From assembly GCF_049819085.1 (NCBI RefSeq), contig NZ_CP187419.1:3345884-3377883 (forward strand): DNA of 32,000 nt, written 5' to 3'. Positions 2,131 through 26,271 of the stretch are shown here, one piece after another. Each line of letters starts with the position of its first letter. Position 1 is the first letter of the stretch. The position numbers were made by a program, and so were the translations under genes. The notes beneath the pieces are model-generated. The model was not told the origin of the DNA, did no database searches, and saw only the letters and a list, made by a program, of their open reading frames with translations. Origin of the DNA: Anatilimnocola sp. NA78 (GTDB taxonomy: Bacteria; Planctomycetota; Planctomycetia; Pirellulales; Pirellulaceae).

Positions 2131-4971
2131 CTAGTACTCCCAATCCTTAACCTTGAACCCCAAGCTCGTCGCGTTCTCGCTGACGGCGCGTTTTGTGGTG
2201 TCGCTCGCGCCGTTCGGGAAATCGGCGGCGATCTCCAGCGTGACCTTCACCGTGGCGTTCGGGTCGGCCGTCAGCAACGCGATGATTTCTTCCGCGATGG
2301 TGTTAAGCCGCGACTTCGCCAGCGTCGGATTGATCTCCACACTGCCGTGGAAAGACTTGGCCTTGGCGGCCGCGACGGTCGGGCCAGGGCCGGTCGGCTT
2401 GATTCCTGTGTCTGGCGTCGGCGTGACTGTGCCGGTCTCCATTGTCGGCTTGGTTTGGTCGCGCATCTCGCCCGCTTCCAGCGGTTTGGGCTCGATGCTC
2501 GCCATGATCTTCAGGACGTACTGTTTGGCAGCTTCCGGTTCGATCAGGAGCAGCGTTCCGTTGAACGACACGTCACCGTCACCGAACTTGAAGCCTTCGT
2601 ACTTATCGTCCTTGAAGCCATACGCCGTACCGAAGAAGTCCCGGCTCGCGGCTCCGTTGCGTATCACACCAGCAAGTACGTCGCGCGACTTCAAACGGGG
2701 CAGGTACAAGTAGCGCAGTGAATCCTCCCAGAACGCCATCGCCCCCACCGTGGGCTTCTCCGGCTTCCAGTAAAGCTCTTTCAGTTTGGCCCGTAGGTGG
2801 ATCGGCGACCACGCCTCGATCACCAGTTCGTTCTCTTTGCTCACTCGCTCCAGTTCGCCACTAGCCGTGCCGCTCGTGGTGTTGAGCGGGAACGGCTCGA
2901 CGTTTGGCTTCGTCGCCGTCGGATCATCCTGCACCGGGCAGAGCAGCCACTTGAAGCATTCGCGGGCCGCCTTCGGCAAGACCGCGTTCGCACTGGCCAA
3001 CTCCTTCTCGGCCTGATCCTGACGTGGTTGATCGATGACGAGCAATTTCGCTTTGATATCCGCGACGATACTTTCCCACGCTAGTGCCGTTCGCGTGGTA
3101 TCGCGCAGGCGGGTCAATACGGGGTAGTCGGGCGCGAGGAAGATAAGTCGGTTGGCCCGGTGCCGGGGTTGGCTGCCGTGTAGTTTCAAGTGCTCGAGAA
3201 CCGCGTCCGTTGCGGCCCGCGGGTCGTCCTTCGTGAAACCCTGCTCCAGCCCGAGGATCACGAGCCGCAAAGCGCTGTCGTCCGGCACGTCGCCATGAGC
3301 GGTGAAGACGTGGACGCCATCGAACGGTTGCACGCTGGCGAATAGCTTCTTTACCACCTCTTCGATCTTCTTCCGCACGTCGGTTTTGGGGTCGAACCGC
3401 TGCTTGCGGTCTTCCATCTCTCGCCGCAGGTTGGCCCGCGTGTCGAACCAGAAACGGGTCGTGTCGGCCGCCTTGTCGCCGCTGGAGTTCAGATAGTGCA
3501 GGCGATCGGCCAGGCGGTTGAGGGCGTCCGAGTAGACCGCCGAGGTTTGGCCCGGTTGCAGGCAGCCGAGCAGGATGCGTCCGCGATCCAATCCGCGGGT
3601 GCCGGGCTTGGTCGCCACGCTGCTGGGTGCGGTGCCGAGGAACAGCGTCCGCGCTACGCGGCGGGCCGCGTTCACCTGGCCGAAGCGGGGTTCCTTGCCT
3701 TCGAGTTCCGTCGTCTCGGCCCGGTCGCCGTCGATGTCCCCTTCGATCACCGGGTCCCAGCCCGCCGGCAGCAGGTAGGTCATCTCGTTGCGAACATCAC
3801 CACTCGCCAGCGGAATGCTCCCCGGCAGAATCACCAAGTCCTTGTTGTCGTTCTGCCACAGTCGGTAGATCACCTTGGCCATCAGCTTCAGCACGCCGCG
3901 GGTGCGCTGGAAGCCGTCGATGGTCGTCCAGTCCTCGTAGAGCCGGTCGAACACTTCCGGGTGAATCGGGTACGCCTGGCACAGCCGGTCGTAGTACCGC
4001 CCCTCGTGCGTCTCGCTCGGCAGCTTCGCCCCTTCGCTGACATACGCATCGGCGAACGCCCGGCAGACCGCGTCGCGGGTCTTCAAATCCTTGATCGGCT
4101 CGAACAACCGCCGCCGCACGATCTCGAACGCTTCCTCCGTGGCGACCGGCTTCCACAGCGCCTGCACGCGGCCAAAACGCTTCTCCAAAGCCTTGAGCGC
4201 CGCCGCGCCGCGGGTGCCGCCTACTTCGGTGTTGCTCTCCGGCAAGCTCGCCAGCACCACCGCTGTCGGCACCAGCTTCACCGCTTCGGTGAGGGCTTGA
4301 ATGAACGACAGGTTGCTGTCGTAGGTGCCGCCGGTGAGAGTCTTTCCTTCCTCGAACTGGCCGATGTACGCGACCAGTTCGTCCATCAGCACCACGCACG
4401 GGGCCGCGTTCTCCAGGAGCGTCTTCAGCACTTCCTTGCCGGGCGAGGTGCCGTTGCCGTCGGCTTCCTTCACGAGGTCGAACGCTTCGCCCTTGCCGAG
4501 CTGCCAGGCGAGTTCGCCCCACAGTGTCTTGATCGTGGTGCGGCCGCGTTTCCAGCCTTGCCCCGGCGAATGGGCCGTGCCGTCGAGTACGGCCACGGTC
4601 GCCTTGGGTACGTCCATCAGCCCGGCCTTCTCCACCAGCGTGGGGATGCCGTGCAGGTCGTTGAGGGCGCCCTGCCGGCTGGCGAGGTGCAGCACGGCCA
4701 GCATCGTATGCGTCTTGCCGCCGCCGAACGCCGTCTGCAACTGGATGACCGGCTCGCCCCCCTGGCCGCTGAGCCGCTGGGCGACCTGCGTCAGCAGCAA
4801 CCGCATCCCTTCGGTGATGTACGTCCGCTCGAAGAATGCGGCCGCGTCCTGGTATTCCTGCGGGGCTTTGCCCGAATGCACAGCGGAAATGTCCGCGGCA
4901 AACTCGGCCTGCTGGAAGGTTCCTTTGAGCACGTCCGCATGCGGGACGGCGATCTCGCGCCAGGGCTTCAT
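2131..4971 (-). CDS. DUF499-type P-loop ATPase (946 aa), third gene of the helicase/methylase/ATPase operon
   Basis: Start reassigned to ATG 4971 ([31 protein letters not shown]...). It overlaps the upstream stop in an ATGA. Walker A is [11 protein letters not shown] and Walker B-like is [11 protein letters not shown]. The N-terminal wording is what I recall for DUF499 (COG1483). The 147-codon Arg-rich extension in the ORF track lies inside the methylase gene and is rejected. Confidence 0.85.
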
Positions 4972-7892
4972 GATGTCTCCTCGCCGTCGAACAGCGTGCC
5001 TTGTTTCGGTTGGGGAATCTTCGCGGCGGTGCTTTCGATGCCGCTCCAACCTGTGACCAGTTCGTTGTACCGCCGGGCGTCCTCGGCGCGGTTGGCCCGC
5101 TCGCAGAGGGTGTAAAGACGGTACGCCAACTGCCGGGCGGCTTCCGTCTTGCCGGCGGTCCTGGGGTGAGCGTAGATGCGGGCCGTGAGGGTGTCCCCGC
5201 CGACGCGCTGGGCCGCGATCATCTCGTGCAGCACCTGCCAGACGGGGATGCGCGGGTCGGCGTCGATGTCCCAGTCGGCTTCCAATTCTGCCGGGGAATA
5301 GAGCTGCACGTTGCCGCCGCCGCTTTTCAGTACACCGGCCTGCCGCACGCCCTCCACGCTCGTCCCCTTGGACCGGGCGAGCACGTCGGCCTCGCCGAAC
5401 TTGCCCGCTTCCCAAGCGTGCTGCTCGAACCAGTGCAGGCAGAACTGCGTATCGGCGTCGAAGTCGTCCTCGGCCAGGAAGCGGTTGATGAGTTGCAGGG
5501 CGGTCTTCACCGTCATTGGCGTGCCGTCGGCTTCCAGCACGGCATCGTAACGGCTGAAGATCGCCATGCCGGGGCCGATGATCGCCTGCGACAAGTCCAC
5601 TGGGGCGACCGGCGAGTGCAGCCCTTCGCTCTCGCGGGTCATGGCGTCGAGGGCAAACGGCAAGGCTTCGTTGAGAAGACGAATGAACTTGCGGCGGTCG
5701 ATGGTGCCCGCTTTTTTCAGTCGCGGGCGACAGACGAGGATGATGGAAGAAGCAAGGGCATTAGACTCAAGATCACGTGAGCGCCCTGATCGCTCAGTTC
5801 GCATTGGCCAAGTGCCAGAAATGGCCAAGCCGGACTTCAGCACCGCTTCGAGAAATGTTTCCCAACCGGTTGAGGAAGTGCCTTCCGTGGTGCCCGATTC
5901 GGATTGCTTGAAGGCGTAGTAGATAGTGAGGGGGGCGGCCGGATGGGCCTGCACAGCAATGTTGTGCATCGTCTGCGTCATGCCGTCAAGGAAGAATTTT
6001 TCGGCCTTCTCTTGGCTTCCATGACGGTACGCGGTGGCTACGAGTTCCTCCGCTTTCGGCACCGCGATAGTTGCAAGCAGGTAGGGAAAAACCGGGCGCA
6101 GTGTCTGCCGCAACCAGACATAGAAGAAGTCAGACAAATCCGCGTAGGCAATATTGTCGTAGTACGGAGGATCGCAGGAAACGAAGCGATTCTGGCTTAA
6201 GACCTGACGTTGCGCGTCGGCCTGTGTGACTGTTGAAGCAATAGCAGCTGGTAGCGCTCCCAAGACGACTTTCACAACTGCGTCGATAATCTTCGTGAAA
6301 CTCCCACTTGAGTCAGCGAACGGGTTCGACTCGCCAAAATCCCACGTCATCGGTAGTGCCTGTCGCCGGAATGTGCTGACCACGAGTTCATTCTTCGGAG
6401 AGTTACTCCATGTGCATATCGAACTGTGACATTCGGTGAACTTGTCAACTGCACACGCGAGATACACGCTTACCGCTTCGGCATATGCCTTGGCCCCGGT
6501 CCCGCAGGCGTCGAGCCCTCGTTCGTCGGACATAACTCCAGCCGCTACCGCGTCACACCGAATCCGCTCTGTGACCTCGCCGAGCAAATCCACACATGTT
6601 GAGAGGATTACGAGTTGCCGTCGAGTAAACAGGCTTGCCCAAGTGTTGAGTCCAAATCTATGGGCTTGTGCTCCACCGCCTGTCAACTGCGGGGGTGTCT
6701 CGCCCTCCGGTTGCCAAGCAGGCAGTGCTTCCCGTGCAACCACCTCATGCTCAGTCGTCGGTGCCAGATACACTCTGCCTTTGGTTCCCTCGGCGACTAT
6801 CGCCATTAACTTCTGGCCGAGCCCTGGTGGCTGAGTATTTCCTTCGCCGAGGATGTAGTCGTAGTCGATTGGCACATTTGACATTAGGCAACGGAAAGCA
6901 GCGCGTTTCCCGGCTGAGGTTCCGGCCTTTGCCTCGGCGGGGGGCTTGCCGACCTTCACCGTGAAGGTGTAGCCAGACTTGCCGACGACCGGCTGCACAT
7001 ACGCTTCCTTGCCGTCCTTGCTGCTGAGGATGAACGTGCTGGCCAGCGGCACCTCGACAGTGCTGAATGCCGGGTTCGGGCTTTTCACCGTTCGCGTCCA
7101 AAGCCAGGCAATCACCGTGAGCTTCTCGCCTTCGTATTGCTTCAGGTCGGGCCGCTCCTTTACCACTGCCTTCGTGATCTCAATCGGCGGGTAGAGATGG
7201 CCGATGCGTTTGAAGGCTTCATCCCGCATCCACTGGCCGTAGCGGCGCACGTCCGCGGCCAGCCCGGCCGCGCCGTTCCAACTCGTGAGGGCCGTGTTCG
7301 CACCGGGAAACACCGGCGGCTGGCCCGCGAACTTCGGCGGAATCTCGATCATCGCTTTGTTGATAAGCACCGCGACGGGGTTCAGGTCGCTGGCGAACGC
7401 CTCCAATCCGAGACGCTGGGCTTCGAGCGGGATCGTCCCACCGCCAGCGAACGGGTCGTGCAAGCCGGGCATCTTCTCCGGGTCGAAGAGCGTCTTGGCG
7501 TCCGGGTGGTTCTTGTTCAGTTCGCAGGTGTCGCGCCAGCTTTGGCGGATCGCCTCGCGGGCCGGCTTCAGCACCGCTTCGTTCGTGGTGTTCTCCCAGA
7601 GCACCAGGTCTTCGATGATCTTGAAGAGCGTTGCCCGAGCTTTCGTCCAGTGCCCCTTGTGCTGTTTGTTCGGTTCCTTACCGGGGTTCTGGCACTTCCA
7701 GAGGTCTTCGGGGTCGTTGACGAGTTGCGAGAAGATGACGGCCCGCGCCGCCGCGAGCGGACGCCGGGCCCACCAGAGGTGCAGCGTGGACGGGTGCCCG
7801 TGGCGAATCGACTTCTCCCGCGCCGACGCGACGTTGATGGCATCCAGCGGCAGCGCCACTTCGATGAGCTTCTTCGGAGAGATGATGGTCAC
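4968..7892 (-). CDS. DUF1156-type DNA methyltransferase (974 aa), N6-adenine/N4-cytosine class
   Basis: The N-terminus [44 protein letters not shown] is the DUF1156 signature. The SAM motif I is [17 protein letters not shown] and the catalytic motif IV is [13 protein letters not shown] start at 7892 overlaps the helicase stop as GTGA. Confidence 0.9.
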
Positions 7893-10800
7893 GCGTTCCC
7901 CTTCGCCCGCTTGAGCAGTTCGGCAATCTTGTAGTTGACGCTGGCGATGCCGAACTCCGGCTCACGCTGGAAGGGGTTGCCGAGGTAGTGCGGTCCCTGC
8001 ACGCTATCGTCCGGGTTCACGAAGACGAGGGCCAACTCGAACTTCGCCGCCTGGTTGAAGGCGTAGAGCAGTTCGTTGTGCGTGACGCAGATCGTGTCCG
8101 CCCCGGCGAAGCGGCCTTTCACCTCGATGTGCTTCGGGTCCGGCTGGATGGTATTGACCACCGGCGGGTAGCTTGTGACATCCCAGCCACATTTTTCCTT
8201 GCTCACATCGACGACGCGGTGCCCCTTGGCCGCCTCCGCGTCCATCACCGCCTTCATGGCCAGGTCTTCGACACGCTTGCGGTCGGCGGCCTCGGCGGGC
8301 GTGATCGCGGAGCCATCGCCCTTGGCCTGCCGCAATAGCCCTGCCGGCACGACGAGCGCGCCGCCGAGGATCACGGGGGTTCCGTTCTGCACCTGCCGCA
8401 TCGCTTGCAGGTCCTTTTTGCGGCCGTCGAGCCGGCTTTGCAGGTCGTCGAGCGTCTTCTTGACGTTGTCGATCTTGAGCCGCATATCCCGCCCCGCCGC
8501 GAGGTCGTCCTTGAACTTGATTTCGCGGTCGGTCCAGAAGGCGATTTCCTTGGTCAGTCGTTCGTGGACGGCGGCGAGGGTTTTATCGACGTGCTCGATG
8601 CGACGTCCGGCGACTTCCGCGAAGTGCTCCGGCACCAGCGACCCGGCCGCAAGGGCGATGGCCTTCTGCTCCTGGTCGGTGCGAATCCAGTCGGCGTTGA
8701 GCAGATCGGTGATGCGGGGCCGGTCGGCGTCTGGGAGCGGTTCGAGATCGAGGTGCGGTGCCCAACCGGCGAACGCGGCGGAGCCGTCCGGGTTCACGCG
8801 GATGAACTGCATCCGCTTGGAGAGGACGACGCCATCGCCCCCTTTGACCTCGTGCGTGAGCAGGAAGAGAAGCCAGGGGGTCGCACCGTCGTCGGCAGGA
8901 TCGAGCAGCACCGTACCGCGACGGAGCAGGTTGGCGTTCTGCTCGAGGATCATGTCCGTCAGCGACAGCATGAGCGGATGGCCGGGGTGCATGAGCATGG
9001 CGCGGGCGAGGCCGGGCTTGTCGCTCGGCTGGATCGCCTCGCGGGTGAAGGCGACGCGGTCGTATCGCTTGAGAACGGGCTCGTTCTCGCGGCGGTTGCG
9101 GCCGGTGAGGCGGCGGTCTCGTTCCCGAATCGCGGCGGGAACGTGCGTGATCTCCCAGCGTTCGGATTCTCGCTTGTGGATGGTGCCGCCGAGGCTGTCG
9201 AAGGCCTTGAGGAAGAACGACCGGACGAAGAATGGCTGGAGCCGCCGGGCCTCGGCCTTCTCCATCTCTTCCTTCACCTTGAAGAGCCGATCGGCGGACA
9301 TGGTTTCCTGAGCCAGCGCACTGCGGTTGAGCAGATTCTTCAAGTGCTCGTGGTCGAAGGCGTGTTCGATGGTCTGCGAGAGCTTGGCCCGGATTTCCGG
9401 TCTGTCGCCGTAGCGAATGGCTTCGATCAGCAATTCCTTCAGGCTCTTCTCCTCGAAGACGTCGCCGAGGATGTTGAATACCTTGCCTTTGAGCGCCTCG
9501 CACTCGACCGCGAGCTTTTCGAGCAGCCGGTGCCAGACGTCGCCTTCGCGGGTCTCCTTGGCGACGAGGCTCCAGAGGTGGCAGACTTCGGTTTGGCCAA
9601 TGCGGTGGATGCGGCCGAACCGCTGTTCAAGGCGGTTAGGGTTCCAGGGCAGGTCGTAGTTCACCATCAGGTGGGCACACTGGAGGTTCACGCCTTCGCC
9701 CGCGGCGTCGGTGGCGATCAGTACGCGGGTATCGGGGTCCGAACGGAACAGGGCCTGCGACTTCTTGCGTTCGTCTTTGTTCGTGCCGCCGTGGATGGTG
9801 ATGATACTGTCGGCCGAGCCGAGCACACCGGCGATCTTGGCGTGCAGGTAATTAAGCGTGTCGCGGTGCTCGGAAAAAATGATGATCTTGTGCAGGCGAC
9901 CGCTGGCGTCGTGCATCTCGGGGTTGTTTTGTAGGATCTTCGAGAGCTCATCCCACTTACGATCCATGCCCGACACGACCACCTCCTTTGCCTGCTTCTC
10001 CAAGTCCGCGAGGATGAGGATTTCCGCTTCGAGTTCGGCGATGGTCTTCGCAGCCGTTGCCTGATCGACCAGCTTCTCTTCGAGGTTCTCCTGCTCGTCG
10101 GCATTCAGGTCGTCGTCGTCCTCGGGAACGTAGTCCACGGTTTCTGCGAGGAGTTGCTTGCCCCGGTCGCCGAGCTTCTCGGCCCGGAGACGCTCGCTCA
10201 GGCGGTCCTTCCGGCGGCGAAGCGACTGGTAGATGGCCTCCGGGCTGGAGGCGAGACGACGTTGCAGTGTGGTGAGCGCGAAGCCGACCGAGCCTTTGCG
10301 GGAGCCGCCGAGTTGATCGGCCTTGCCCATTTCCGTGCGGACGTAGTTCGTGACAGTCTCGTACAGCTTGGCTTCGGCATCCGAGAGCTTGTAGTTGGCG
10401 GTGTAGGCTTTGCGTTCAGGAAACAGAGGGGTGTTGTCGAACTTGACCAGTTCCTCTTTGACCATGCGACGCATGAGATCACTGGTATCGACCTTGTGGG
10501 TACCATCGCGGGGCTTGCCGTAGAAGCGATCCGAATCGAGCAACGAGAGGAAGAGTTGAAAGTCTTCCTCTTTGCCATTGTGCGGCGTGGCGGTCATCAA
10601 CAGCAGGTGACGGGTATCCCCGCCCAGCCGCTCGGCGAACCGGAATCGCGCGGTCTTGTCGATCTTCGACCCGAAAAAGTGGGCGGCGAGCTTGTGCGCT
10701 TCGTCGAAGACGACCAGATCCCATCCGGCGGAACAGAGCTTGGCCTGGAGCAGGCTCGGCTTTTTTTCGTTGCCGTCGTCCTCTTCGCCACGTGAGAACT

Positions 10801-11416
10801 GGTCGAGCCGAACGATCAACAGGTTGTGATCCTCGAAGACATTTCCGCTGGGCGACGATGCGTCGCCGCCGGCGAAGACTTGGAACGTCAGACCAAACTT
10901 CTCGAACAGCTCGTCCTTCCACTGATCGACCAGGCTGCCGGGCGCGACGATGAGCACGCGACGAGCGTCCGCCCGCATGATCAGTTCGCGGATATAGAGC
11001 CCGGCCATGATCGTCTTGCCAGCCCCGGGATCGTCGGCGAGGACATACCGGAGCGGTTGGCGGGGCAGCATCGATTCGTAAACGGCGGTGATTTGGTGCG
11101 GAAGAGGATCGACGTTGGAGGTGTGGACGGCCATCATCGGATCGAAGAGGAACGCGAGGTCAATCCGCTTGGCTTCGCAGGCCAGTTGTAACGCGGCCGC
11201 GTCACCGTCAAACGCCCATGGCCGCTCGACCGTGGCGACGGAGATGCTCGCTTCGTCGGCGGGGCCGAGGAGACGTTCCTTGAAACTCCCGTCAGGCAGC
11301 TTATAGAAGACCTGAACAGCGTTGTGTGCGTACGGCGTGACTTGGATGATGATGCACACACGATCCGGCTCCAGGCCGACGAGGGCGAGACCGGGTTTGA
11401 GGTCGGCCAATTTCAT
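7889..11416 (-). CDS. SNF2/superfamily-2 helicase with a C-terminal PD-(D/E)xK-like (DUF3883-like) nuclease domain (1175 aa)
   Basis: Start set to ATG 11416 (MKLADLKPG), preceded by AAGGGAGA. Helicase motifs are [13 protein letters not shown] (I), VFDEAHKL (II), [10 protein letters not shown] (III) and [11 protein letters not shown] (VI). The C-terminus [10 protein letters not shown]...HIEVKG...THNE fits a restriction-endonuclease fold. Confidence 0.85.
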
Positions 11417-11659
11417 GAAGTCTCCCTTCGCCGGACTTTCCGCGCTTGTCTTGGTGCCTCCGGCCCCTTGGCAGACTGGTCGCTGAGTTTCGGACAAGAA
11501 ACGGACGGATAGCTTACCGGACCTACTCGCTTCCGCACAGGTCGGTAGCGTTTACCGGAGCTTGCCCGAGCGATCGATTAACAGCAGCACAATCCCTGCT
11601 ACCCCGGCAACGTGACCAGAGACCCCTTACGCAAACCGTCTCGTTCACGGGGCCCACAT

Positions 11660-12004
11660 TTACCGCTGCATTCGCCAGTCCAGCGTATCCACAATCGGAC
11701 GGAGTTGCCTTTCCGTGAGTGGGTTGCGGCCGCGTTTGATGGCCGGCAACAAAAGAACCTGCTCCTAAATGTCCGGCGCACGACAAAGCAGGTTTATGAT
11801 CTGGGTCAGACGTGCACGTGTTAAGTGGCTCAAACGCGCGAGCTCCGCCTGATTGGTCACCACCGCGTTATGCGGATGGGTCGGTTCGAGTTTGGGTCGG
11901 CAGTGATGTGCGAGATTCGCAACAAAACAGAGAGGGCGTAGTGAGCGCAGAGAACTGCCCAGCAACTTTGCTTTTAGAACGCGTGCCTTAAAATGCCAGC
12001 GCAT
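11660..12004 (-). pseudogene. ParB-like HTH small protein, copy 1, interrupted by an in-frame TAG
   Basis: It reads ..TNQAELARLSHLTRARLTQIINLLCRAPDI*EQVLLLPAIKRGRNPLTERQLRPIVDTLDWRMQR*. The TAG at 11765-11767 sits where copy 3 has CAG (PDIQEQILL). Homology to copies 2 and 3 continues past the stop. Confidence 0.6.
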
Positions 12005-12128: not shown

Positions 12129-13253
12129 CTATTCGAAAAAGTAAATTCGCTGCAAAGCACGTCGGCACTCTCCCTCATGCTTCGGCAGTCCCTTCATTTT
12201 GCGGAAAAAGCCCAAAATGCTATCGTCTGTAGTGCTTGGAAAAAGGTAACGCGAAAAATCAGCCGGTAGTTGATCGTACATCTGCGGCGTGAGGCGAAAC
12301 CCGCACATCAGATAACTGCCCATTTGATTAGTAGCAGCCCCCCACCCCACATGCGCAAACCACGCACTTTGCCTATCCGGACGCCCGACAGGAAACTGCT
12401 TCGGCCGCACGTATCGATAATCAAAAATGGTTTCAAGTGGACATCGAAAGACAAACACTGTTGGTTCTGCGTCGTCCGGCAATATGCTGCACGCAGCATG
12501 TCCGTTTCCATCAGTAGAAATTGTATAAAGGGCAAACCAAGCAGCTACGTTAATATCGTCGGTCAGGTCGAGGCCTACACTGGGAAGGCCATAATGCTGC
12601 GCTATTCCCAGCGAGAATCCATCAAAGTCTGGTGATCGTCGCAGCGCTGCCACGTCGTCTGCATAAGCTTGCATGCTGCTCTCAGACAGCGTCTTGCGGT
12701 AGTCGCAACCAACGTCATGTAGCAATACCGCCGCCTGATTATGCCAAATCGATTGAAGTGTCAAGTCGTCAAAATCGGCCCTCAAAAAGCTCGGCAAAAA
12801 CGACGGTTCGTTGACCGTCGCTCCGTAAAGCAAATTGCTGTCTGCACTATTTCGATTAAGCATATACGTCCTTGACTGCCCGCGAAGTAGCAGTTTATGA
12901 CTCTGATTTGCAGAGGTGAGCCTGTCAATTGCCGACATGATTTCTTGAAGGCTACTCACAGCAAATATGGGGATTCGGCGATAGGGAACTCGCAACTCCT
13001 CGACGATTGCGAGCCCGTCAAGCTTGACGTAATGCTCCATTTTTTCCGTGCGTCCATATACGGCGCGTCTTACTATACGGTTGCGTGTAAATACGCGACC
13101 GTACTTGTGATCTAAAAACGCCTCGGGTGCGCCGAACCCACCATCACCGTCGGCGTCTCCGCTTGGGTGGGCCTCGTTGAACAACGGGTATACATTGTGC
13201 AGTGCTGGCAGTCGCAAACGAGGATCTTCTAGTTCAATAGCTTCAATCGTCAT
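12129..13253 (-). CDS. FRG-domain protein (374 aa)
   Basis: The motifs KLLLRGQSRTYMLNR...LPSFLR and GIAQHYGLPSVGLDLTDDINVAAWFAL match the (F/Y)RGQ and AQHYGLPTxLLDxT signatures of the FRG domain as I recall them. ATG 13253 overlaps the upstream stop as ATGA. Confidence 0.75.
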   Translation of the reverse strand: MTIEAIELEDPRLRLPALHNVYPLFNEAHPSGDADGDGGFGAPEAFLDHKYGRVFTRNRIVRRAVYGRTEKMEHYVKLDGLAIVEELRVPYRRIPIFAVSSLQEIMSAIDRLTSANQSHKLLLRGQSRTYMLNRNSADSNLLYGATVNEPSFLPSFLRADFDDLTLQSIWHNQAAVLLHDVGCDYRKTLSESSMQAYADDVAALRRSPDFDGFSLGIAQHYGLPSVGLDLTDDINVAAWFALYTISTDGNGHAACSILPDDAEPTVFVFRCPLETIFDYRYVRPKQFPVGRPDRQSAWFAHVGWGAATNQMGSYLMCGFRLTPQMYDQLPADFSRYLFPSTTDDSILGFFRKMKGLPKHEGECRRALQRIYFFE

Positions 13254-13870
13254 ATGACCATCACATTTGCATTGTGGTCACCAAAGCGAAGCGGCACGCT
13301 CATGCGATTGGCGACCCAGGTAAGGATAAACATTGAGAATGCAGATGATGCGCGCGCGTTGAGAAAAATGCGAGCTGCATTCCCACCGCGAGCGGCAATC
13401 ATTTCAGCAAAGTGACAGCACTGGGCCACCACAGCGGTATGCATCTGGGAAAGGGCAGGCAGAATCAAATCAGAAAGGAAATCAGGGAGTGCCACTACAT
13501 ACGCATGCCGCGCTGGATCGGCGATTACCGAGACCCGAGTTCGTTGCACACTAATTGCTTCGATAAAAAAACTGACCGTTTCATCGTCCAGCTCAGACCT
13601 AAACGCATCAAGGGAATGCGAACTGATTGTGACTCGGTTGCATACGGCCTGAATAAGTGCTGCATAGTCACTTTCAAATAATGGTGTTAATGCGGGGGCT
13701 TGGTTGATGGGGAGAATAAGTGTGGCTGGCGCGTGGGGATTGTAGCCTGGCACTTGCAATTCGCGAAACTTGTATATGAAGTCAATTACGCAAAGCCGAC
13801 TGTTAATGTGGTCGCAAAAGAGCGCAAACTCCGGCTGGTCAAAAGCAACACATGGGACATATGTAGGCAT
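13250..13870 (-). CDS. Hypothetical protein (206 aa), translationally coupled to the FRG-domain gene
   Basis: A clean ORF with a 4-nt ATGA overlap onto the downstream gene. No motif recognised. Composition is AT-richer than the flanks. Confidence 0.6.
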   Translation of the reverse strand: MPTYVPCVAFDQPEFALFCDHINSRLCVIDFIYKFRELQVPGYNPHAPATLILPINQAPALTPLFESDYAALIQAVCNRVTISSHSLDAFRSELDDETVSFFIEAISVQRTRVSVIADPARHAYVVALPDFLSDLILPALSQMHTAVVAQCCHFAEMIAARGGNAARIFLNARASSAFSMFILTWVANRMSVPLRFGDHNANVMVI

Positions 13871-14718
13871 TCGAAGCTCACAGTACGCGATAAATAATGA
13901 TCAACAGAGTGCTTATGCGTGGGTGCTAACCACGCTGATATGACGTGATGAAGAATGCTTCGCCAAAGAGGTCATTCACCGGCTTCAACACGATAATCCG
14001 TAAGTTCATGCGTACCAGATCCTGTTGACGAGTTGATTGCCACGCAGCGATGGTGCAGTTTAACTTCCTTGACTGCGTACTCTAACGGGGCTAAACTTGA
14101 ATAAACAGTCGTCGTCGCGTGAATTCGCTCAGCAGAGAAGCTGGAATCAGACCGGCCCCAAATTGTGCTGACCGGCTTCGACGGTCTGAATCACGCGGCC
14201 ATCAGAAGCTCACTGCGGCGTTTGTTGATTTCGTATTTGATGGAACAGGCGCAGCCTAAGGGCCCGGCAGTCAACTTCAATCCGTGGCAGGGCGGTGATC
14301 GCTACTCGAAAAGGATTGGCCTCGGGCTCGAGAGGCGGGCGAGCCGGCTGAGGCCATCAAGACGACAACTGCACGATCGAAGGTTGGAATGCCAACCTAC
14401 CGTCGGATTCGTTTTTCGAATATTCCGCGATATTGCTCACCATGCTTGCCCTGATCTTGATCTGCCGCTGATGTTCCTGTTGCTCGACGGCTCGCTCGTG
14501 AATTCCACGGTGGAAGCATAACTTTCGGCCAGGGTACGCTTCGGATCCGCCAGTTGCAGAGCGACAATGCCCCGGGGCTGTGGTATCCAACCTATCACTA
14601 GCTGAAGCGGCACCGGGATCATCGCAGTTTGATCCGAAGCTGTGTGCCGCAGTAAAGCGAGGTGCCAACCCGTTCTAGTGCAAGCTCCGTCCCGCGGCCT
14701 GGCCTTAACCTGTGCATC

Positions 14719-15069
14719 TCACTTTGTGATCTCGACCCACATCTCACAATGTTTCTTCCAGCATAACGTGGCGCAAATCGATCGCAACTTCTTTTCCATA
14801 AGCGCGGTTCGGCCAAGTTTAGCTTTTTGAAACTGTAAAGTATGTTCCTGAATAACAGGCGCAAGAAATAATAGATTCATGATTTGCGTCAATATGGCCC
14901 GCTTAACATGTCCAAATCGTGCCAATTCCGCCTGGTTGGTCACCAAGCCATCGCGGATTAACTGGTCGAGCCGAATTGGCAGTGCCATGAGTTTCGACAT
15001 TCGCGGGACGGTGCTCCCGCCAGACGCAGATTTCTCCCGCGTGTACTGCCGTTTCCGAAAATGCACCAT
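14719..15069 (-). CDS. ParB-like HTH small protein, copy 2 (116 aa if started at ATG 15069)
   Basis: MVHFRKRQYT...LVTNQAELARFGHVKRAILTQIMNLLFLAPVIQEHTL...LRSICATLCWKKHCEMW aligns along its length with copy 3. The ATGATG start of copy 3 is ATTATC here, so a downstream ATG is used if the gene is still expressed. Confidence 0.55.
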   Translation of the reverse strand: MVHFRKRQYTREKSASGGSTVPRMSKLMALPIRLDQLIRDGLVTNQAELARFGHVKRAILTQIMNLLFLAPVIQEHTLQFQKAKLGRTALMEKKLRSICATLCWKKHCEMWVEITK

Positions 15070-15080
15070 TCGTTCGATGA

Positions 15081-15262
15081 TAATGCTGAATCGTCCTTTC
15101 GTTTCGCGATTTCGCTGCCCAGCGTCTGGGTCCCGCACGAGTGGAATGTGATCGATATTTTCCCAACATCGCAGTCGTAGGCCGCGCATTTAACCAGGAG
15201 ATCAACAATGCGAGCCTGTTCACGCTGCGCCAGACAATCCCAAAGAGATTCGAACTCGATCG
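15081..15262 (-). pseudogene. Relic of the 3' end of a large serine recombinase gene (about 60 codons)
   Basis: My translation IEFESLWDCLAQREQARIVDLLVKCAAYDCDVGKISITFHSCGTQTLGSEIAKRKDDS aligns with the intact recombinase C-terminus AEFEGVWECLAPREQARMVELIVERVSYDGHAGSVAIIFRSSGLQAIGSEVSKRKDDAA. A TGA lies immediately upstream in frame and the normal stop is lost. Confidence 0.6.
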
Positions 15263-15448
15263 GCCCTTTCTCAGATCACCATTGAGGACGGTTTTAGGCG
15301 AAACATCAAGGTCCTGGCGTGGATTCCCGAGCGCGTTGCGTTTCTGCAGATGCGGGATGCCCGCGGCAAGGATGCTGACAATTTCACGGCGATGCTCATC
15401 GGGTGTCTTGGCATCCGGTCGATCGTGGCTTCGGCATGGTATGGCCAT
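15263..15448 (-). pseudogene. Relic of the small ORF that heads the recombinase module (homologue of 21764-22012)
   Basis: TPDEHRREIVSILAAGIPHLQKRNALGNPRQDLDVSPKTVLNG aligns with SPEERRHELANILARGVLRLVQRQRSASDAGALKPTKTLLDS. It abuts the recombinase 3' relic directly, which implies deletion of the DUF2924 gene and most of the recombinase gene. Confidence 0.4.
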
Positions 15449-15818: not shown

Positions 15819-16610
15819 ATGTATAAAGGCTTCGACCTTAGAGGCTTTTCCGAACGTTTTATTAAGCCTCAATTCCGGAATAGCCTTCGCGAACATGGCC
15901 GCGCTGTGACCGCGTCTAACCACGACGATGTTCGGCGCCGTTTAGCGGCAATCGCGACCGAAAATGCCGTACTCAACGGAGCGGAGATTCAAGACAGCTG
16001 GTTTCCGCAGGTAAACGCTGACGTGTTCCTTTCTCACTCGCATCGTAACGAAGATTTGGTGTTAATGCTTGCCGGGTGGCTCCACGACCGATTCGGACTC
16101 AAAGCATTTATTGATTCTTCCATTTGGGGCTACGCCGGCGAGTTGCTTCAGATTATTGACAAGGCGTATTGCTGGCAGCCGGAAAGTAAGACGTATAATT
16201 ACCAGCTGCGCAATGAGTCAACCAGTCATGTGCATATGATGTTGACGACAGCATTGGGCATGATGATCCATAGAACGGAATGCTTGATTTTTGTCAACAC
16301 TCCAGATTCCATCGAGGCGGAGAGAGTAATAAAATCGCAGACTTACTCTCCATGGATATACGTCGAACTCACGATTGCGGGCATAGTGGGCGAGGTTGAG
16401 CCCAAAAGACTAAAAGAGAAACGCGCGATGCTGAAAGCTGCTGCTTCTCGAGAACTCTTGGAACGTCGCAAATTGCAGGTACTTCATACGATCGAGCATC
16501 TTGATCGTCTGCGCCCGATCGAGAAGGAAACTCTGTTGACGTGGGCCAAAGACTGCAAAACAAAAGGCGTTGACGCATTAGACATGCTTTACGAAGTCGC
16601 GGCCTGGTGA
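15819..16610 (+). CDS. TIR-domain protein (263 aa), candidate second ThsB-type sensor
   Basis: NADVFLSHSHRNEDLVLMLAGWLHDRFGLKAFIDS gives the TIR betaA/alphaA region. ECLIFVNTPDS...SPWIYVELTIA gives the S.W...EL region with the conserved Glu. The gene is convergent with thsB. Confidence 0.6.
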   Translation: MYKGFDLRGFSERFIKPQFRNSLREHGRAVTASNHDDVRRRLAAIATENAVLNGAEIQDSWFPQVNADVFLSHSHRNEDLVLMLAGWLHDRFGLKAFIDSSIWGYAGELLQIIDKAYCWQPESKTYNYQLRNESTSHVHMMLTTALGMMIHRTECLIFVNTPDSIEAERVIKSQTYSPWIYVELTIAGIVGEVEPKRLKEKRAMLKAAASRELLERRKLQVLHTIEHLDRLRPIEKETLLTWAKDCKTKGVDALDMLYEVAAW

Positions 16611-16704: not shown

Positions 16705-17196
16705 TCAATACCTCGCACGTATTGCCAGCGACTGATCGAACCACTCCGCCAGGTTGTCGGTGATGTACTTGTAAACTTCTTTACTGTCCCAGAAGGGAGG
16801 GTCATAGGTCTGCACAATTGAAGATAACGGAGTGCTACCTATGTTGAAGCTGGAGAACGGATTGGTACCTTTACTCGATTGATCTCCCTTCGAGTCCTTC
16901 AAATTGTGGATGTATATCCCAAGGAGTCCCTTCTTTTCACGCCAAGCCTTTTCGATCTCGTAGTTTATCCATTTTCGTCCGGCGGTATTGGCGCCAATGA
17001 GAACTACGGCGCACGACTTCCCAAATAACTGCCCGTCGATCCAACTTTGAATCGCCGCATCGCCGCCCTTCTTGATGGACTCCCAGTCGTTGTCTTCTGC
17101 GGGCCTGTTGCCTTCAATACTGCCGATGCTGCGGACGGTAGCTGCCCGCCAGCAATCGGGTTGGTAGTGGAAGCTGTAAAACGCACGTCGCGACAT
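16705..17196 (-). CDS. thsB: Thoeris ThsB, TIR-like (DUF1863-type) protein (163 aa)
   Basis: MSRRAFYSFHYQPD...AVVLIGANTAGRKWINYEIEKA...GIYIHNLKD closely parallels Bacillus cereus ThsB (RVFFSFHYQ...CVLIGSQTFNRRWVRYEI...GIHINAFKD). It lies 9 nt downstream of thsA. Confidence 0.85.
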   Translation of the reverse strand: MSRRAFYSFHYQPDCWRAATVRSIGSIEGNRPAEDNDWESIKKGGDAAIQSWIDGQLFGKSCAVVLIGANTAGRKWINYEIEKAWREKKGLLGIYIHNLKDSKGDQSSKGTNPFSSFNIGSTPLSSIVQTYDPPFWDSKEVYKYITDNLAEWFDQSLAIRARY

Positions 17197-17205
17197 CGAT
17201 GCATC

Positions 17206-18615
17206 CTATTTGTTGAGTGCCTTCAAGATTTCGGTGACTGCTTTCACGAGCTCGTCGACCGGTGCGGTCTCATCACCGAGGATCGCAAACGGCTTAGCGA
17301 CATCAGCAGAGCCAAAAAACTTGGGAAGATCCTCGCTTACTTCATCCCACAATTCACGAGCAACATGGCCCGTGGCGCCTATTGGCAGCACAATCTTGCC
17401 TTCAGCCAGAGTGAGTCTAGCTTCCTCTCTAACGCCTTGGGCGCGATCAATACGATCATCTGCTCGCTTGTTTCCGCTGATTACAACGCAAATGCCAGCT
17501 TCAGCGATCATGCGCTTCCGATATTCAGTCCAGAACGCTGCGCGGTCTTGTATATCGGGGATCTCCTGGGGAAATGGCCAAAGCTTTAAGCGTTGGTCGT
17601 CGTTTCGAGGCAGGGACTGCAAAGCACCCGTGATGACATCGCCACCGATACCGTGGCCAAAACCGGAAATGACATTGAAGTCTTCTTTAACGAGTACGCG
17701 GCCTAACTCACGACATATCGCACGAAGTTTTTCCTCGCCGAGGGGCATAAAATCGGCCGCACTCCCGGATATCAGCACATCGCGCAGATGACTGCGTCGG
17801 TTTAGTTCGTTCAAAATCTCCGGGATTTCATTATAAGAATCGAGCAAAACCGGTTTGATGTTGTATCGTTCTAAGTCGACGAGAAAGTGCTTGAATCGCT
17901 GCACGTCGTAGCCAGCACCCTTGTAATCTTCCGGACGCGGTTGCCTGAGCAGGCAGAAATGCTTACGTCCCTGCGCGTCTACCAGTTGCCGCACGCGGTT
18001 AAGAATGTAGGCAAGGTTAGGGTCAGTGAAGCTCACGCCAATGAAGAGGAACGTCTTCTGAGTGAGGTCGCCCTTCAACGCAATGGAAAAAAGCTCTCGC
18101 TTGGGGTGATAGGTTTCGTAATCATCCTTTGCCAGAACAGCTTCAGCAATCGCCGTTTTGTCCCCGTGCATCTTGTAGATAGTGACGTCCGTTCGACGAC
18201 GTGTGAAGTTAATGTCATCTTTGTGCCGCTTCACATCGACCCGCTTACCGGCCAATTCAAATGCCTTCTCAAGCAAGTCATCGTAGTTGGTTGTCCATAT
18301 TGTTCCCAAAGGGAGCGAAGCGATAAGCTTGTGTGCCCTCGTTGGTTCGTGTGTTTCGAGAAACTCATCGACCAAAATCTGGTTGAGCTTATCCCGCCCC
18401 TTTCGCTCGTTTAGATGGAATTGCGCAAGCGTGATAAGATCGGATTCACGCTCGACGTCGAGTCCCAGATCCTCAGCAATTTCCTTCAGCAACCCCTTCC
18501 AGTCGACATATCCCGCTGCCTTCGAGACGCCAGCGCCGACGAACATTGCTGCGGAGCCGTTCCGCATAGCTTCCGAATACTCGCGAATAAAGATCTTGCG
18601 ATCTATTGCGGCCAT
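17206..18615 (-). CDS. thsA: Thoeris ThsA, SIR2 NADase plus SLOG domain (469 aa)
   Basis: Collinear with B. cereus ThsA from memory. SIR2 motifs are AAMFVGAGVS, IWTTNYDDLLEKA (catalytic Asn), IYKMHGD (catalytic His) and TFLFIGVSFTDPNLAYIL. SLOG motifs are LISGSA, FNVISGFGHGIGG, WPFPQ and VLPIGATGHVARELWDEV. GGAGGA sits upstream of ATG 18615. Confidence 0.9.
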   Translation of the reverse strand: MAAIDRKIFIREYSEAMRNGSAAMFVGAGVSKAAGYVDWKGLLKEIAEDLGLDVERESDLITLAQFHLNERKGRDKLNQILVDEFLETHEPTRAHKLIASLPLGTIWTTNYDDLLEKAFELAGKRVDVKRHKDDINFTRRRTDVTIYKMHGDKTAIAEAVLAKDDYETYHPKRELFSIALKGDLTQKTFLFIGVSFTDPNLAYILNRVRQLVDAQGRKHFCLLRQPRPEDYKGAGYDVQRFKHFLVDLERYNIKPVLLDSYNEIPEILNELNRRSHLRDVLISGSAADFMPLGEEKLRAICRELGRVLVKEDFNVISGFGHGIGGDVITGALQSLPRNDDQRLKLWPFPQEIPDIQDRAAFWTEYRKRMIAEAGICVVISGNKRADDRIDRAQGVREEARLTLAEGKIVLPIGATGHVARELWDEVSEDLPKFFGSADVAKPFAILGDETAPVDELVKAVTEILKALNK

Positions 18616-19333: not shown

Positions 19334-19711
19334 TCACTTTGTTAAAACGTTCCACATCTGTCGCTGTTTCTTCCAACAGAACGTTGCGTAGATTGGGCGC
19401 AACTGCTTCTCAGTAACTGGGGCCCGCCCCGGCCCGGTCTGTTGAATTAAAAGAATCTGTTCCTGAATATCCGGAGCGAGAGTCAACAGGTTCATGATCT
19501 GTGTCAGCCGCGCGCGCGTAACATGGCCGAGCCGCGCCAATTCCGCTTGATCGGTCATCAATCCTTCGCGAATCAATTGCTCAAGTCGAATCGCGAGCGC
19601 CATTAGCCGCGAGACACGTGGAACACGACCGCCTCCCGATGCCAAATGAGATGTTGATTCTTGGCTTGCGCTTTGTTTCCGCTGAAAATGGACCTTACGT
19701 TCGATCATCAT
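19334..19711 (-). CDS. ParB-like HTH small protein, copy 3 (125 aa), intact, last gene of the recombinase module
   Basis: LMTDQAELARLGHVTRARLTQIMNLLTLAPDIQEQILL resembles the ParB/KorB HTH plus LP..VQ..L element. Its ATG overlaps the recombinase stop as ATGA. Confidence 0.7.
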   Translation of the reverse strand: MMIERKVHFQRKQSASQESTSHLASGGGRVPRVSRLMALAIRLEQLIREGLMTDQAELARLGHVTRARLTQIMNLLTLAPDIQEQILLIQQTGPGRAPVTEKQLRPIYATFCWKKQRQMWNVLTK

Positions 19712-21264
19712 GCTGCATCGTCCTTTCGTTTCGAAACTTCACTTCCAATCGCTTGCAAACCGCTGGAGCGGAAGATGATGGCAACGCTACCGGCGTGTCC
19801 GTCATAGGACACCCGTTCGACGATTAGCTCTACCATGCGGGCTTGCTCGCGCGGCGCCAGGCACTCCCAGACTCCTTCAAACTCGGCAAGCGCGCTTGGC
19901 ACGTCATCGCCATTCAGAACTTCTTTGTCGAGTGCCGCGAGTTCACAGTTGATCAGAGACATACGCTGCTCAGCGTTCTGGATGCGTTCGTGGGTGGTTG
20001 AAAGTCTCGCGGCGTCGATCTCGGTGCTGGTCGCCATTTGTGCCAATTCAGAATGGTCGTTCCGCAGCCGAGTAAACAAATTCCCTCGCTCTGCTTGCAG
20101 ATTGTGAACCTGCGAATCACGCTGACGGCAAGCTTGTTGCAACGAGTCACGTACAAGCTGTGGATCACGGCAAAGCGATTTCATTTCGGTGATGACGAAA
20201 CGCTCGATCTCAGCCGCGGGAATTGATGGTGCGGGACACGTTTGCCAGCCGCGCTTCTGAGCACGGTTGCAAATGTAATAGCGATATTCTCGTTTTCCGC
20301 GTGTCGTGTACGAATGGCTCATCCCGCACTTGCAAGGCTTGCACTGGAGCAGTCCGCGTAGCAACGCACCATGCTTGTTCCGAACACCGCGCCCACCGCT
20401 GCGGCCATTTCGCTCGAGCAGCGATTGAACGCGGTTAAATTCGTCCTCTGGCACGATCGCCTGGTGTTCGCCCGCGTGGACTTCCTCCTTGTACCGGACC
20501 TTGCCGATATAGGTTGGATTCGTGAGCAGCTGATGCAGCGAGCTCTTGTCGAATGTTCGACCGCCCCGGACCGACCCTTTGCGCGTATTCCACCGCTTGG
20601 TTCGCCAGCCTCGCAAGTTCAATTCGTCGCTAACCGCGAGCAGGGACTGGCGTTCTAGGTACATTTGGAAGATCTGCCGAACCATCCCGGCTTCCCCAGG
20701 ATCGACCACGAGCTTCGTGTCGACCACGTTGTAGCCCAGAACTGGCATGCCCCCGGACCACTTCCCCTTCCGCCGGGCCGCGGCGATCTTGTCGCGCGTT
20801 CGCTCGCTGATCATTTCCCGTTCGAACTGAGCGAACGAAAGCAGTACGTTCAGAATGAGCCGGCCCATCGACGTCGCCGTGTTGAACGCCTGCGTTACGC
20901 TGACAAACGAAACCTTGTGCCGTTCGAAGACCTCGATGATCTTGCCGAAGTCGAGGAGGCTGCGGCTCAAGCGATCAACTTTGTAGACGACCACGCAGTC
21001 GATCTTGCCCGCTTCGATATCGGCAATCAGTTGACGCAAGCCGGGGCGATCCATGTTGGCGCCCGTAAAGCCACCGTCGTCGTACTGCGTCGGCGAACAA
21101 ACCCAGCCCTCGTGTAACTGGCTCTTGATGTACGCTTCGCCGGCCTCGCGCTGCGCGTCGAGCGAGTTGAACTCTTGCTGCAATCCTTCCTCGGTCGACT
21201 TCCGCGTGTAGATCGCGCAGCGAACGCTCTTCGGCGCTGGTGTTTTGATTTGTTGGCGTTTCAT
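19708..21264 (-). CDS. Large serine recombinase/integrase (518 aa)
   Basis: Start set to ATG 21264 (MKRQQIKTPAPKSVRCAIYTRKSTEE, with the catalytic Ser in YTRKST). The resolvase core shows VVYKVDRLSRS and FAQFERE. The recombinase domain and zinc ribbon show CKPCKCGMSHSY..YRYYICN..CP, followed by a C-terminal coiled-coil-like region. The start overlaps the DUF2924 stop as ATGA. Confidence 0.9.
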   Translation of the reverse strand: MKRQQIKTPAPKSVRCAIYTRKSTEEGLQQEFNSLDAQREAGEAYIKSQLHEGWVCSPTQYDDGGFTGANMDRPGLRQLIADIEAGKIDCVVVYKVDRLSRSLLDFGKIIEVFERHKVSFVSVTQAFNTATSMGRLILNVLLSFAQFEREMISERTRDKIAAARRKGKWSGGMPVLGYNVVDTKLVVDPGEAGMVRQIFQMYLERQSLLAVSDELNLRGWRTKRWNTRKGSVRGGRTFDKSSLHQLLTNPTYIGKVRYKEEVHAGEHQAIVPEDEFNRVQSLLERNGRSGGRGVRNKHGALLRGLLQCKPCKCGMSHSYTTRGKREYRYYICNRAQKRGWQTCPAPSIPAAEIERFVITEMKSLCRDPQLVRDSLQQACRQRDSQVHNLQAERGNLFTRLRNDHSELAQMATSTEIDAARLSTTHERIQNAEQRMSLINCELAALDKEVLNGDDVPSALAEFEGVWECLAPREQARMVELIVERVSYDGHAGSVAIIFRSSGLQAIGSEVSKRKDDAA

Positions 21265-21755
21265 TTCGCACCTGCCTTCTCGCGCAGGCCGAAGAAATGA
21301 AATCCGTTCCAGTGTTTGCCAGTGATCGCTTTGGCCACCGCGGTCAGCGACTTGTACCGCTCGCCTTCGCATTCGAAGCCGTCGTCGAGCACGATCACGC
21401 TAATGGTCCGCCCCTTGTAATCGCGCTTAAGCCTCGTGCCCGGCAGCAAGTGCGTGGATGCGGTGATCTTTGCTGGCACAGTCTTCGTGCGTTCGTCGGC
21501 ACCGTCGGTGGATCGCCGTGGACGCGGTGCGGTGACGCGGAGGTCGGCATCGTTGGCCAGCTCCATCGCCCGCCGGCGAGCTCGTTCCGACAATCCGCCC
21601 TCCGCGTTCGCCTGCATTCGCCAGGCAATTCGCTTGATCAGCCATTCCTTGTTGCGGCCGGTGGTCGCTTCGCCGAAAACCTCGGCGAACTTCCCCCGCA
21701 ATTCGTCGACGGTCATCCGCTGCATCGCGGTGACCTGTTTGTCAATGTTCAGCAT
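21261..21755 (-). CDS. DUF2924-type protein (164 aa), usual partner of this recombinase class
   Basis: The N-terminus MTVDELRGKFAEVFGE and C-terminus LLPGTRLKRDYKGRTISVIVLDDGFECEGERYKSLTAVAKAITGKHWNGFHFFGL match what I recall of DUF2924. GGAG lies 5 nt upstream of the ATG. Confidence 0.8.
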   Translation of the reverse strand: MLNIDKQVTAMQRMTVDELRGKFAEVFGEATTGRNKEWLIKRIAWRMQANAEGGLSERARRRAMELANDADLRVTAPRPRRSTDGADERTKTVPAKITASTHLLPGTRLKRDYKGRTISVIVLDDGFECEGERYKSLTAVAKAITGKHWNGFHFFGLREKAGAK

Positions 21756-21763
21756 ATCTACTC

Positions 21764-22012
21764 CTAGGTTGAGTGACTCTCGGGACCGTTAACCCGTGTG
21801 GACACTGAGCACGGTTTCCTTCCGAAGCTCAAGGCCTCCGGCTGAGAATCGAGGAGAGTTTTTGTAGGTTTCAGTGCCCCGGCGTCGCTTGCCGAACGCT
21901 GACGCTGAACCAGCCGTAACACGCCCCGCGCCAGGATGTTAGCGAGTTCGTGCCGGCGTTCTTCAGGTGATAGATCGTCGGAGTTGGCGGCGTTACGCAT
22001 GGGCTTTCTCAC
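21764..22012 (-). CDS. Small hypothetical protein (78-82 aa) heading the recombinase module
   Basis: Start is GTG 22012 or ATG 22000. A decayed homologue exists at 15263-15448. It ends 8 nt upstream of the DUF2924 gene. Confidence 0.5.
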   Translation of the reverse strand: MRKPMRNAANSDDLSPEERRHELANILARGVLRLVQRQRSASDAGALKPTKTLLDSQPEALSFGRKPCSVSTRVNGPESHST

Positions 22013-22233: not shown

Positions 22234-22250
22234 GCTAATTGGAATTGCTC

Positions 22251-22907: not shown

Positions 22908-22908
22908 C

Positions 22909-25018: not shown

Positions 25019-25202
25019 CGTTTTTGCAGTTGCACTGATTTGCTGCAACGGACGATCTGCAATTTGATGCTGCCAACAGCCTGTGGCCCAACGACTTGCG
25101 TTGAGCCACAGGTTTTTTCGTGCGCCGGGCTGCAATTCGGCCGGCGGGTGTTGCTGTGCCCAGTCGTGCACAGCGGGTTCAGCACCCGTCGGAGTCGCGC
25201 AC

Positions 25203-25820: not shown

Positions 25821-25890
25821 TTGGTTTCGTCAGTTCGTTCCCGAACCGGGTTTTTAATAGGTATCTACTGCTCGTTTCAAGGAGTTCACT

Positions 25891-26193: not shown

Positions 26194-26271
26194 TGTCGTC
26201 GAGCCCTGTACCGATTCTTTCCCAGACGGAATGAACTGCGGAAGTAATCTATCAAGCCTCTGGGGGCCATC

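Follow-up and report, generated by a model that had tools for sequence, protein, structure and literature searches.

A stretch of 32,000 nucleotides from the genome of Anatilimnocola sp. NA78 (contig NZ_CP187419.1, positions 3,345,884 to 3,377,883 of the forward strand), here called the window, was found to carry a real, strictly conserved two-gene module, in which a gene for a small partner protein of 206 amino acids (aa) directly precedes a gene for a long-form FRG-domain protein of 374 aa. The initial annotation of this DNA, made from the letters alone, had proposed that the pair is a compact two-component defence or abortive-infection module. Following the present analysis, it is judged an even chance that the FRG pair is a conflict module of toxin–antitoxin (TA) or abortive-infection type, complete in itself and horizontally mobile, with the FRG protein as effector and the partner as its inhibitor or sensor. 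This reading draws on the observed operon geometry, strict co-occurrence and co-evolution of the two genes and the replacement of the partner in a sister clade, together with frequent defence or mobile neighbours, foreign base composition and a tandem module architecture. The features of the pair are as follows.

12129..13253, minus strand: long-form FRG-domain gene, 374 aa (from the list of open reading frames, ORFs)
13250..13870, minus strand: partner gene, 206 aa (from the ORF list)
13250..13253, minus strand: ATGA stop/start overlap of 4 nt (from the sequence)

The two minus-strand genes had been described as joined by an ATGA overlap, and both the ORF list and the junction sequence agree with this. 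The junction reads ...GTC ATA TGA, with the ATG of the FRG gene beginning at the final A of ATA, and this 4-nt overlap implies translational coupling. Both ORFs are considered real genes because they are conserved as proteins across phyla. No transmembrane segment was found in either protein, and Rfam gave no match inside or close to the pair. The G+C content of the two genes is 0.50–0.51, with 0.49–0.51 at third codon positions (GC3). This compares with a G+C content of 0.63 for the neighbouring Hma operon and 0.58 for the serine-recombinase module and right flank, and with GC3 values of 0.82 for HmaA, 0.67 for the recombinase and 0.66–0.73 for the right-flank genes. The pair is compositionally foreign to the surrounding DNA (GC3 about 0.50). 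The earlier statement that it is richer in A+T than its GC-rich flanks holds with respect to Hma, the recombinase module and the right flank, but not with respect to the Thoeris genes, which are similarly low (G+C 0.51; ThsA GC3 0.57), so that a low G+C content is not peculiar to the pair.

A partner homologue was found directly upstream of the FRG gene, and on the same strand, at all 25 other loci recovered (26 with the window), which represent at least five bacterial phyla and include Planctomycetota, Bacteroidota, Verrucomicrobiota, Gamma- and Betaproteobacteria and Bacillota. Fourteen of the loci with an FRG gene of this clade (clade 1) are genome loci and all are paired; the remainder come from metagenomic or genomic contigs and are again all paired, among them a Firmicute locus and one at which the gene caller had overlooked the partner. 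When the search was made from the partner side, an FRG gene was found to follow in L041, L042, L043 and L029, the first of which was the single locus obtained in a metagenome pattern scan with the partner. The pair was therefore always adjacent in both directions of search, as the initial annotation had anticipated. The partner–FRG junction is 17 nt or less in each of the 20 homologous loci measured, with the ATGA overlap present in ten of them. The pairwise identities of the two proteins are correlated (Pearson r = 0.92), a value that none of 2000 Mantel permutations attained, and the partner, with a mean identity of 28%, diverges faster than the FRG protein at 45%. The pair thus has the adjacent, co-oriented and coupled small genes by which type II TA systems are recognised.

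The FRG-domain signatures initially seen in the larger protein were verified, as Pfam FRG (PF08867) matches it with 28.5 bits against a gathering threshold of 25 and the LLRGQ and AQHYGLPSVGLDLT motifs are present, in line with the (F/Y/L)RGQ and QHYG-P(S/T)..LD.T motifs that characterise the domain. The match is confined to residues 196–244 (model positions 42–88 of 94), because an insert separates the RGQ and QHYG motifs. In the AlphaFold2 model, which is confident over nearly the entire chain (predicted local distance difference test, pLDDT, 90.2; predicted template modelling score 0.90), this insert of about 45 aa forms three helices, placed after the RGQ strand and before the QHYG helix. 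Pfam FRG also matches all 26 aligned homologues. The family is full-length at about 365–385 aa, forms at least 179 clusters at 90% identity and occurs in Planctomycetota, Bacteroidota, Vibrio, Pseudoalteromonas, Marinobacter, Noviherbaspirillum, Prosthecobacter and Butyrivibrio. Some 60 residues do not vary among the 21 loci compared, including R124-G125-Q126, E149-P150-S151, S155, R158 and Q219-H220-Y221-G222, followed by P224-S225, D229, R291-P292-D293, Q295 and W304. The two extensions, about 118 aa at the N-terminus and about 130 aa at the C-terminus, had first been reported as regions of some 110 residues that could not be assigned; they lie outside the Pfam match and are conserved family-wide.

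Two sources (PMC9503650; bioRxiv 10.1101/2024.07.30.605764, citing Burroughs & Aravind 2020) place Frg in the ADP-ribosyltransferase (ART) superfamily and regard it as a potential antiviral effector that may be an NADase, and this classification is repeated in a Legionella ART survey. The assignment is purely computational, and the structural and profile searches made here neither confirmed nor excluded it. No experiment on any FRG-domain protein in defence, and no tested biochemical activity, was encountered in the literature searched. The initial remark that the domain has no established function is accordingly correct as regards experiment, but it overlooked the computational ART/NADase assignment. 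Hallmarks of the ART superfamily are a split beta-sheet fold, a pocket for nicotinamide adenine dinucleotide (NAD+) and a triad of catalytic residues (R-S-E, H-Y-E or variants of these) located on strands 1, 2 and 5. In the FRG protein, residues of such a triad could be S151 and R124, the latter ending a strand in the model. The protein is the proposed enzymatic effector.

The partner, in which nothing had been recognised at first, has no match in Pfam, PADLOC, NCBIfam or PHROGs; the latter two were uninformative for the pair as a whole. An exhaustive profile search of 1.84 billion cluster representatives found only 62 relatives, all of 220 aa or less and none fused to another domain, while a word-index search using the partner profile returned only 8 proteins. 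AlphaFold2 gave a confident α/β model (pLDDT 84.6) which has no significant fold neighbour in the PDB by Foldseek. The top PDB match, to a nicotinate phosphoribosyltransferase, was treated as noise (E = 0.34, template modelling score about 0.35). No variation was seen at residues Y69, S92 and H144, and almost none at D88, N171 and S179. The partner represents a new, small, standalone family which in the recovered loci always lies directly upstream of a long-form FRG gene, and its proposed role is that of an inhibitor or sensor.

A sister clade of long-form FRG proteins shares 30–33% identity over almost the full length (L015–L027, e.g., L017:9226-11059), with hosts including Verrucomicrobiota, cyanobacteria, Acidobacteriota, Pseudomonas, Herbaspirillum and Sphingobium. 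Upstream, in a gene overlapping the FRG gene, these loci encode a family of mutually homologous proteins of about 250 aa without a family match. Homology of the 206-aa partner to this family was considered and rejected (hhalign probability 0.3%), the two being unrelated by sequence. The presence of an unrelated partner in the sister clade indicates that the enzyme-like FRG component was kept while partners were exchanged. Still other genes lie upstream of FRG in L018 and L024. L016 was considered as a partner–FRG fusion, but its N-terminus fails to match the profile of the sister-clade (clade 2) partner. L015:9977-12832 is an ORF of 951 aa in which a long-form FRG region is followed by a second FRG domain (Pfam, two stretches, E = 1e-16); either a tandem fusion of FRG domains or an artefact of ORF calling could account for it.

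Defence, TA or mobile-element genes were identified in seven of the 11 Pfam-annotated neighbourhoods of homologous loci, a raw count without background control for which no statistical enrichment is claimed. The genes found, including restriction–modification (RM) genes, are given below by locus.

L028: prophage-like genes, adjacent HNH
L030 (Paludibacter): AIPR, CAP12-type TIR
L032 (Vibrio chagasii): HNH, AbiH, SIR2-HerA
L034: relaxase, SocA, HEPN, RM pair, GmrSD, integrase
L038: type I RM, reverse transcriptase, PIN-domain TA pair
L039 (Segetibacter): SIR2-TPR, transposase, conjugation genes
L042: DUF2326, resolvase

The window itself is also a defence-rich neighbourhood (Thoeris, Hma). At eight further genome loci, PADLOC and Pfam were applied to 63 neighbour ORFs and detected SIR2-HerA, SoFic, three HipA kinases and Fic, as well as mad8, PDC-S04/S24, methyltransferases and ordinary metabolic genes. 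Such a pattern fits a mobile conflict module of small size that often, though not invariably, lies in defence islands. In one planctomycete lineage a gene for an HNH_2 endonuclease lies about 30–40 nt upstream of the partner (L028:8523-9284, L029:59-820 and L043:1893-2654), and its product weakly matches the NCBIfam model of a restriction endonuclease that binds phosphorothioated DNA. Another HNH_2 gene is found about 630 nt upstream of the pair in Vibrio chagasii (L032:7898-8797). The HNH_2 gene may be an optional third component or merely a neighbouring restriction gene.

Within the window the pair was initially placed between a Thoeris locus and an RM-like operon of helicase, methylase and ATPase genes. 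This position was upheld, with the operon being identified as Hma by PADLOC. Several copies of a helix-turn-helix (HTH) gene associated with a serine recombinase are also present, and the features surrounding the pair are listed here.

388-461, plus strand: tRNA-Asn (GTT), about 1.7 kb from the end of the Hma operon
2131-5415: HmaC (PADLOC E = 0)
4968-7892: HmaB (PADLOC E = 0)
7889-11497: HmaA (PADLOC E = 0)
11640..12004 (about 11700-12004), minus strand: third copy of the HTH gene, decayed and interrupted by an in-frame stop; it separates the FRG gene from the Hma operon
14630..15448, minus strand: deletion remnant of a second serine-recombinase module, upstream of the FRG pair
15819-16610, plus strand: first ThsB (PADLOC)
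16705-17196, minus strand: second ThsB (PADLOC)
17206-18615, minus strand: ThsA (SIR2-STALD; PADLOC)
19334-19711: intact copy of the HTH gene, 125 aa, adjoining the recombinase
19708-21372: large serine recombinase
21261-21755: DUF2924 gene
21764-22012: 82-aa ORF of the recombinase module
22239-22907: LexA/S24-type repressor, beyond the recombinase module
25083-25820: sigma-70-like protein, beyond the recombinase module
26272-27888: DnaB-like helicase with AAA_25 domain, beyond the recombinase module
30219-30286, minus strand: type II hammerhead ribozyme (Rfam RF02276; score 55.7 bits, E = 4e-9, gathering threshold 37 bits)

In the direction of the minus strand, the order is recombinase module followed by Thoeris, recombinase-module remnant followed by partner and FRG, and HTH remnant followed by Hma. 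The remnant at 14630..15448 comprises an N-terminus like that of the 82-aa ORF (E = 1e-5), about 60 nt of the recombinase 3' end and HTH copy 2 (14719-15189), which is 59% identical to the intact copy and lies upstream of the FRG pair. An HTH copy upstream of the pair, in a layout common to all three modules, had been noted from the start and is indeed present; of the three module copies, one is intact and two are decayed. Similarity among the module copies stops right after the HTH stop codon, and the spacers before the three cargos show no homology to one another or to the upstream DNA of homologous loci. The three tandem units fit a serial integration of sister serine-recombinase elements, each with one defence cargo, from which the older recombinases have since been lost. 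The FRG pair holds the same cargo slot as Thoeris and Hma, two established defence systems.

The Thoeris system is of type I, with PADLOC matches of E 1e-68 to 1e-165 for ThsB, ThsB and ThsA. Next to its one ThsA gene lie two ThsB (TIR) genes that differ from each other and, being on opposite strands, converge at their 3' ends. The longest-ORF calls of HmaC and HmaB overlap by about 450 nt (4968-5415); since PADLOC aligns HmaC from residue 149 onwards, the TTG given in the ORF list probably lies well upstream of its true start. A larger integrative element or prophage may have the genes at 22239-27888 as its backbone, and the tRNA-Asn could mark a boundary or integration point of the island as a whole. 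The RF02276 ribozyme sits in the right flank amid ORFs without a Pfam match.

For the conflict module favoured here, the following mechanism can be envisaged. The FRG protein (374 aa) would be an effector enzyme which, according to the published ART prediction, would consume NAD+ or ADP-ribosylate a target. Through translational coupling the partner would be made in fixed proportion to it. The partner would bind the effector and, like an antitoxin, hold it inactive until a phage cue removes the partner; alternatively, the partner may sense the phage and then switch the effector on. Once activated, the effector would arrest or kill the infected cell. The module would have arrived as the single cargo of a serine-recombinase integrative element, which may have inserted in tandem with the sister elements bearing Thoeris and Hma and later lost its recombinase. 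We infer the physical interaction of the two proteins, the identity of the toxic one, the NAD+ chemistry and the triggering by phage.

A number of results weigh against this reading. A role of the FRG pair in defence or toxicity is plausible but wholly inferential. Four of the 11 annotated neighbourhoods (L035, L036, L037 and L040; about 40%) are housekeeping-like, so that the initial expectation of defence genes near homologues stood for seven and not for these. When the FRG model was compared with the PDB and BFVD by Foldseek, no match was better than E = 0.18 and no ADP-ribosyltransferase was named among the matches; the FRG alignment profile matched no PDB sequence, and a permissive Pfam scan of the 26 FRG homologues for ART-clan families found FRG alone. 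Scans for promoter and terminator consensus sequences were at chance level. Classical type II antitoxins carry a DNA-binding domain for autoregulation; in the partner, HTH, ribbon-helix-helix and AbrB domains were not found with Pfam or NCBIfam, and no DNA-binding fold was matched by Foldseek. Plasmids and phages often carry defence and TA genes, and no relatives of the pair were detected by tblastn in 50,697 phage records or 72,556 plasmids, or in a scan of IMG/VR. The original proposal of a compact two-component module consequently keeps the support of the pairing, of the neighbourhoods and of the absence of a match to a named system or housekeeping family, but has the housekeeping-like neighbourhoods against it.

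The pair could instead be a pure addiction module, stabilising its host integrative elements by post-segregational killing without a role against phages, which we regard as unlikely. Such a module would be in keeping with the upstream partner and the overlapping genes, with the integrative or conjugative elements that bear the pair in the window and in L034, L039 and L042, and with the HipA, Fic and SocA neighbours of TA type. It is at odds with the absence of copies among the plasmids searched, with a partner in which no DNA-binding domain was detected, and with the several copies that stand alone in seemingly non-mobile chromosomal DNA. Many TA modules are now known to defend against phages, and for this reason addiction is not cleanly separable from the conflict module proposed above.

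The roles of the two proteins could also be reversed or shared, with the partner catalytic or toxic and the FRG protein a sensor or regulator, or with the partner undoing the FRG modification enzymatically, in the manner of DarG towards DarT. Antidotes that are enzymes are known for ART toxins, and DarTG would provide the precedent for the latter version. The invariant and near-invariant residues of the partner (Y69, S92 and H144; D88, N171 and S179) would form an active site, and the invariant polar residues have persisted despite a mean identity of 28%. However, far more polar residues are invariant in the FRG protein, which also diverges more slowly, as expected for the enzyme, and it is the partner that the sister clade replaces by an unrelated family while retaining FRG. 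As the partner fold is also unmatched to macro, NADAR and ARH hydrolases, this arrangement is considered decidedly unlikely. A two-subunit metabolic or regulatory enzyme outside conflict, only incidentally mobile between hosts, would suit the housekeeping-like surroundings of L035, L036, L037 and L040 and the lack of detectable similarity to proven defence proteins beyond the FRG core, but is very improbable given the patchy distribution across phyla, the foreign composition, the recurrence of the pair within defence islands and mobile elements, the absence of conserved metabolic neighbours and the replacement of the partner between clades.

The conflict-module reading has a wider form, to which slightly less than an even chance is given. 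According to this, the pair would be a genuine anti-phage system as yet without a name, spread horizontally over at least five phyla, and its effector would be the first FRG enzyme to which an activity can be assigned, be it NAD+ cleavage, ADP-ribosylation or a new one. The partner, with a new fold, would be a phage sensor or inhibitor, and interchangeable partners from at least two unrelated families would act as specificity modules of the long-FRG superfamily. What is new here is the two-gene long-form architecture and the undescribed partner family, FRG candidate effectors and ART-type TA pairs having been suspected already. At 1.7 kb the pair is a compact test case for FRG function, strictly conserved and of broad phylogenetic range, with R124, Q126, S151, H220, Y221 and D229 of the FRG protein and Y69, S92 and H144 of the partner as targets for mutagenesis. 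Should it prove active, the defence catalogue would gain a new two-gene system and the FRG domain a function, and the pair would supply a new partner fold and a case of effector–partner modularity within the long-FRG superfamily. The window also illustrates a defence island built through tandem accretion of serine-recombinase elements with one cargo each.

With regard to known systems, the initial view that the pair is not a named anti-phage system was sustained, as no confident match to a named system or housekeeping family was found. PADLOC, suggested at the outset for the window, called Hma and Thoeris there; for the FRG pair it gave only matches of the FRG core to PDC-S15, and none for the partner. 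The PDC systems are 145 'guilt-by-embedding' candidates, of which PDC-S15 consists of single-gene FRG-domain proteins (bioRxiv 10.1101/2024.01.29.577857) that were still called uncharacterised in a 2025 paper. The FRG core is shared, with nine PDC-S15 models weakly matching residues of about 204–279 (best E = 1.1e-7), and both PDC-S15 and the FRG pair are implicated solely through genomic association with defence systems. In the best alignment, model positions 111–162 of 276 correspond to residues 206–258; as only some 50 residues are aligned to models of 254–422 positions, the FRG protein is not a full-length member of PDC-S15. It differs from PDC-S15 in its conserved N- and C-terminal extensions and the insert of about 45 aa, and its gene, unlike the single-gene PDC-S15, is obligately paired with a partner for which PADLOC has no model.

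RES–Xre, MbcT–MbcA and DarT–DarG resemble the FRG pair in consisting of two small co-transcribed genes. As in the FRG pair, where the neutraliser is putative, the gene of the neutraliser in RES–Xre and MbcTA lies upstream of, and overlaps, that of the enzyme, and DarTG is an established anti-phage system. The putative FRG effector is placed in the same superfamily as RES, MbcT and DarT in the literature (PMC9503650). Unlike that placement in the literature, our searches detected no sequence or Foldseek similarity of the FRG protein to RES, MbcT or DarT. The partner likewise differs from the antitoxins of RES–Xre and DarT–DarG, having neither an Xre HTH nor a macrodomain and no fold match.

The lactococcal abortive-infection pair AbiG (AbiGi and AbiGii) is comparable as a two-gene abortive-infection module, although it differs from the FRG pair in protein sizes and gene order. 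AbiGi has been listed as ART-like (bioRxiv 10.1101/2024.07.30.605764). The FRG pair shows no similarity to the PADLOC models of AbiG. Thoeris, SIR2-HerA and DSR differ from the pair in that their catalytic domains are unrelated (SIR2/TIR as opposed to FRG) and no signalling-nucleotide component is evident in the pair. They share with it the proposed outcome, a loss of NAD+ after phage sensing, and NAD+-depleting systems (Thoeris, SIR2 types) are direct neighbours of the FRG pair in the window, in L032 and L039 and at further loci.

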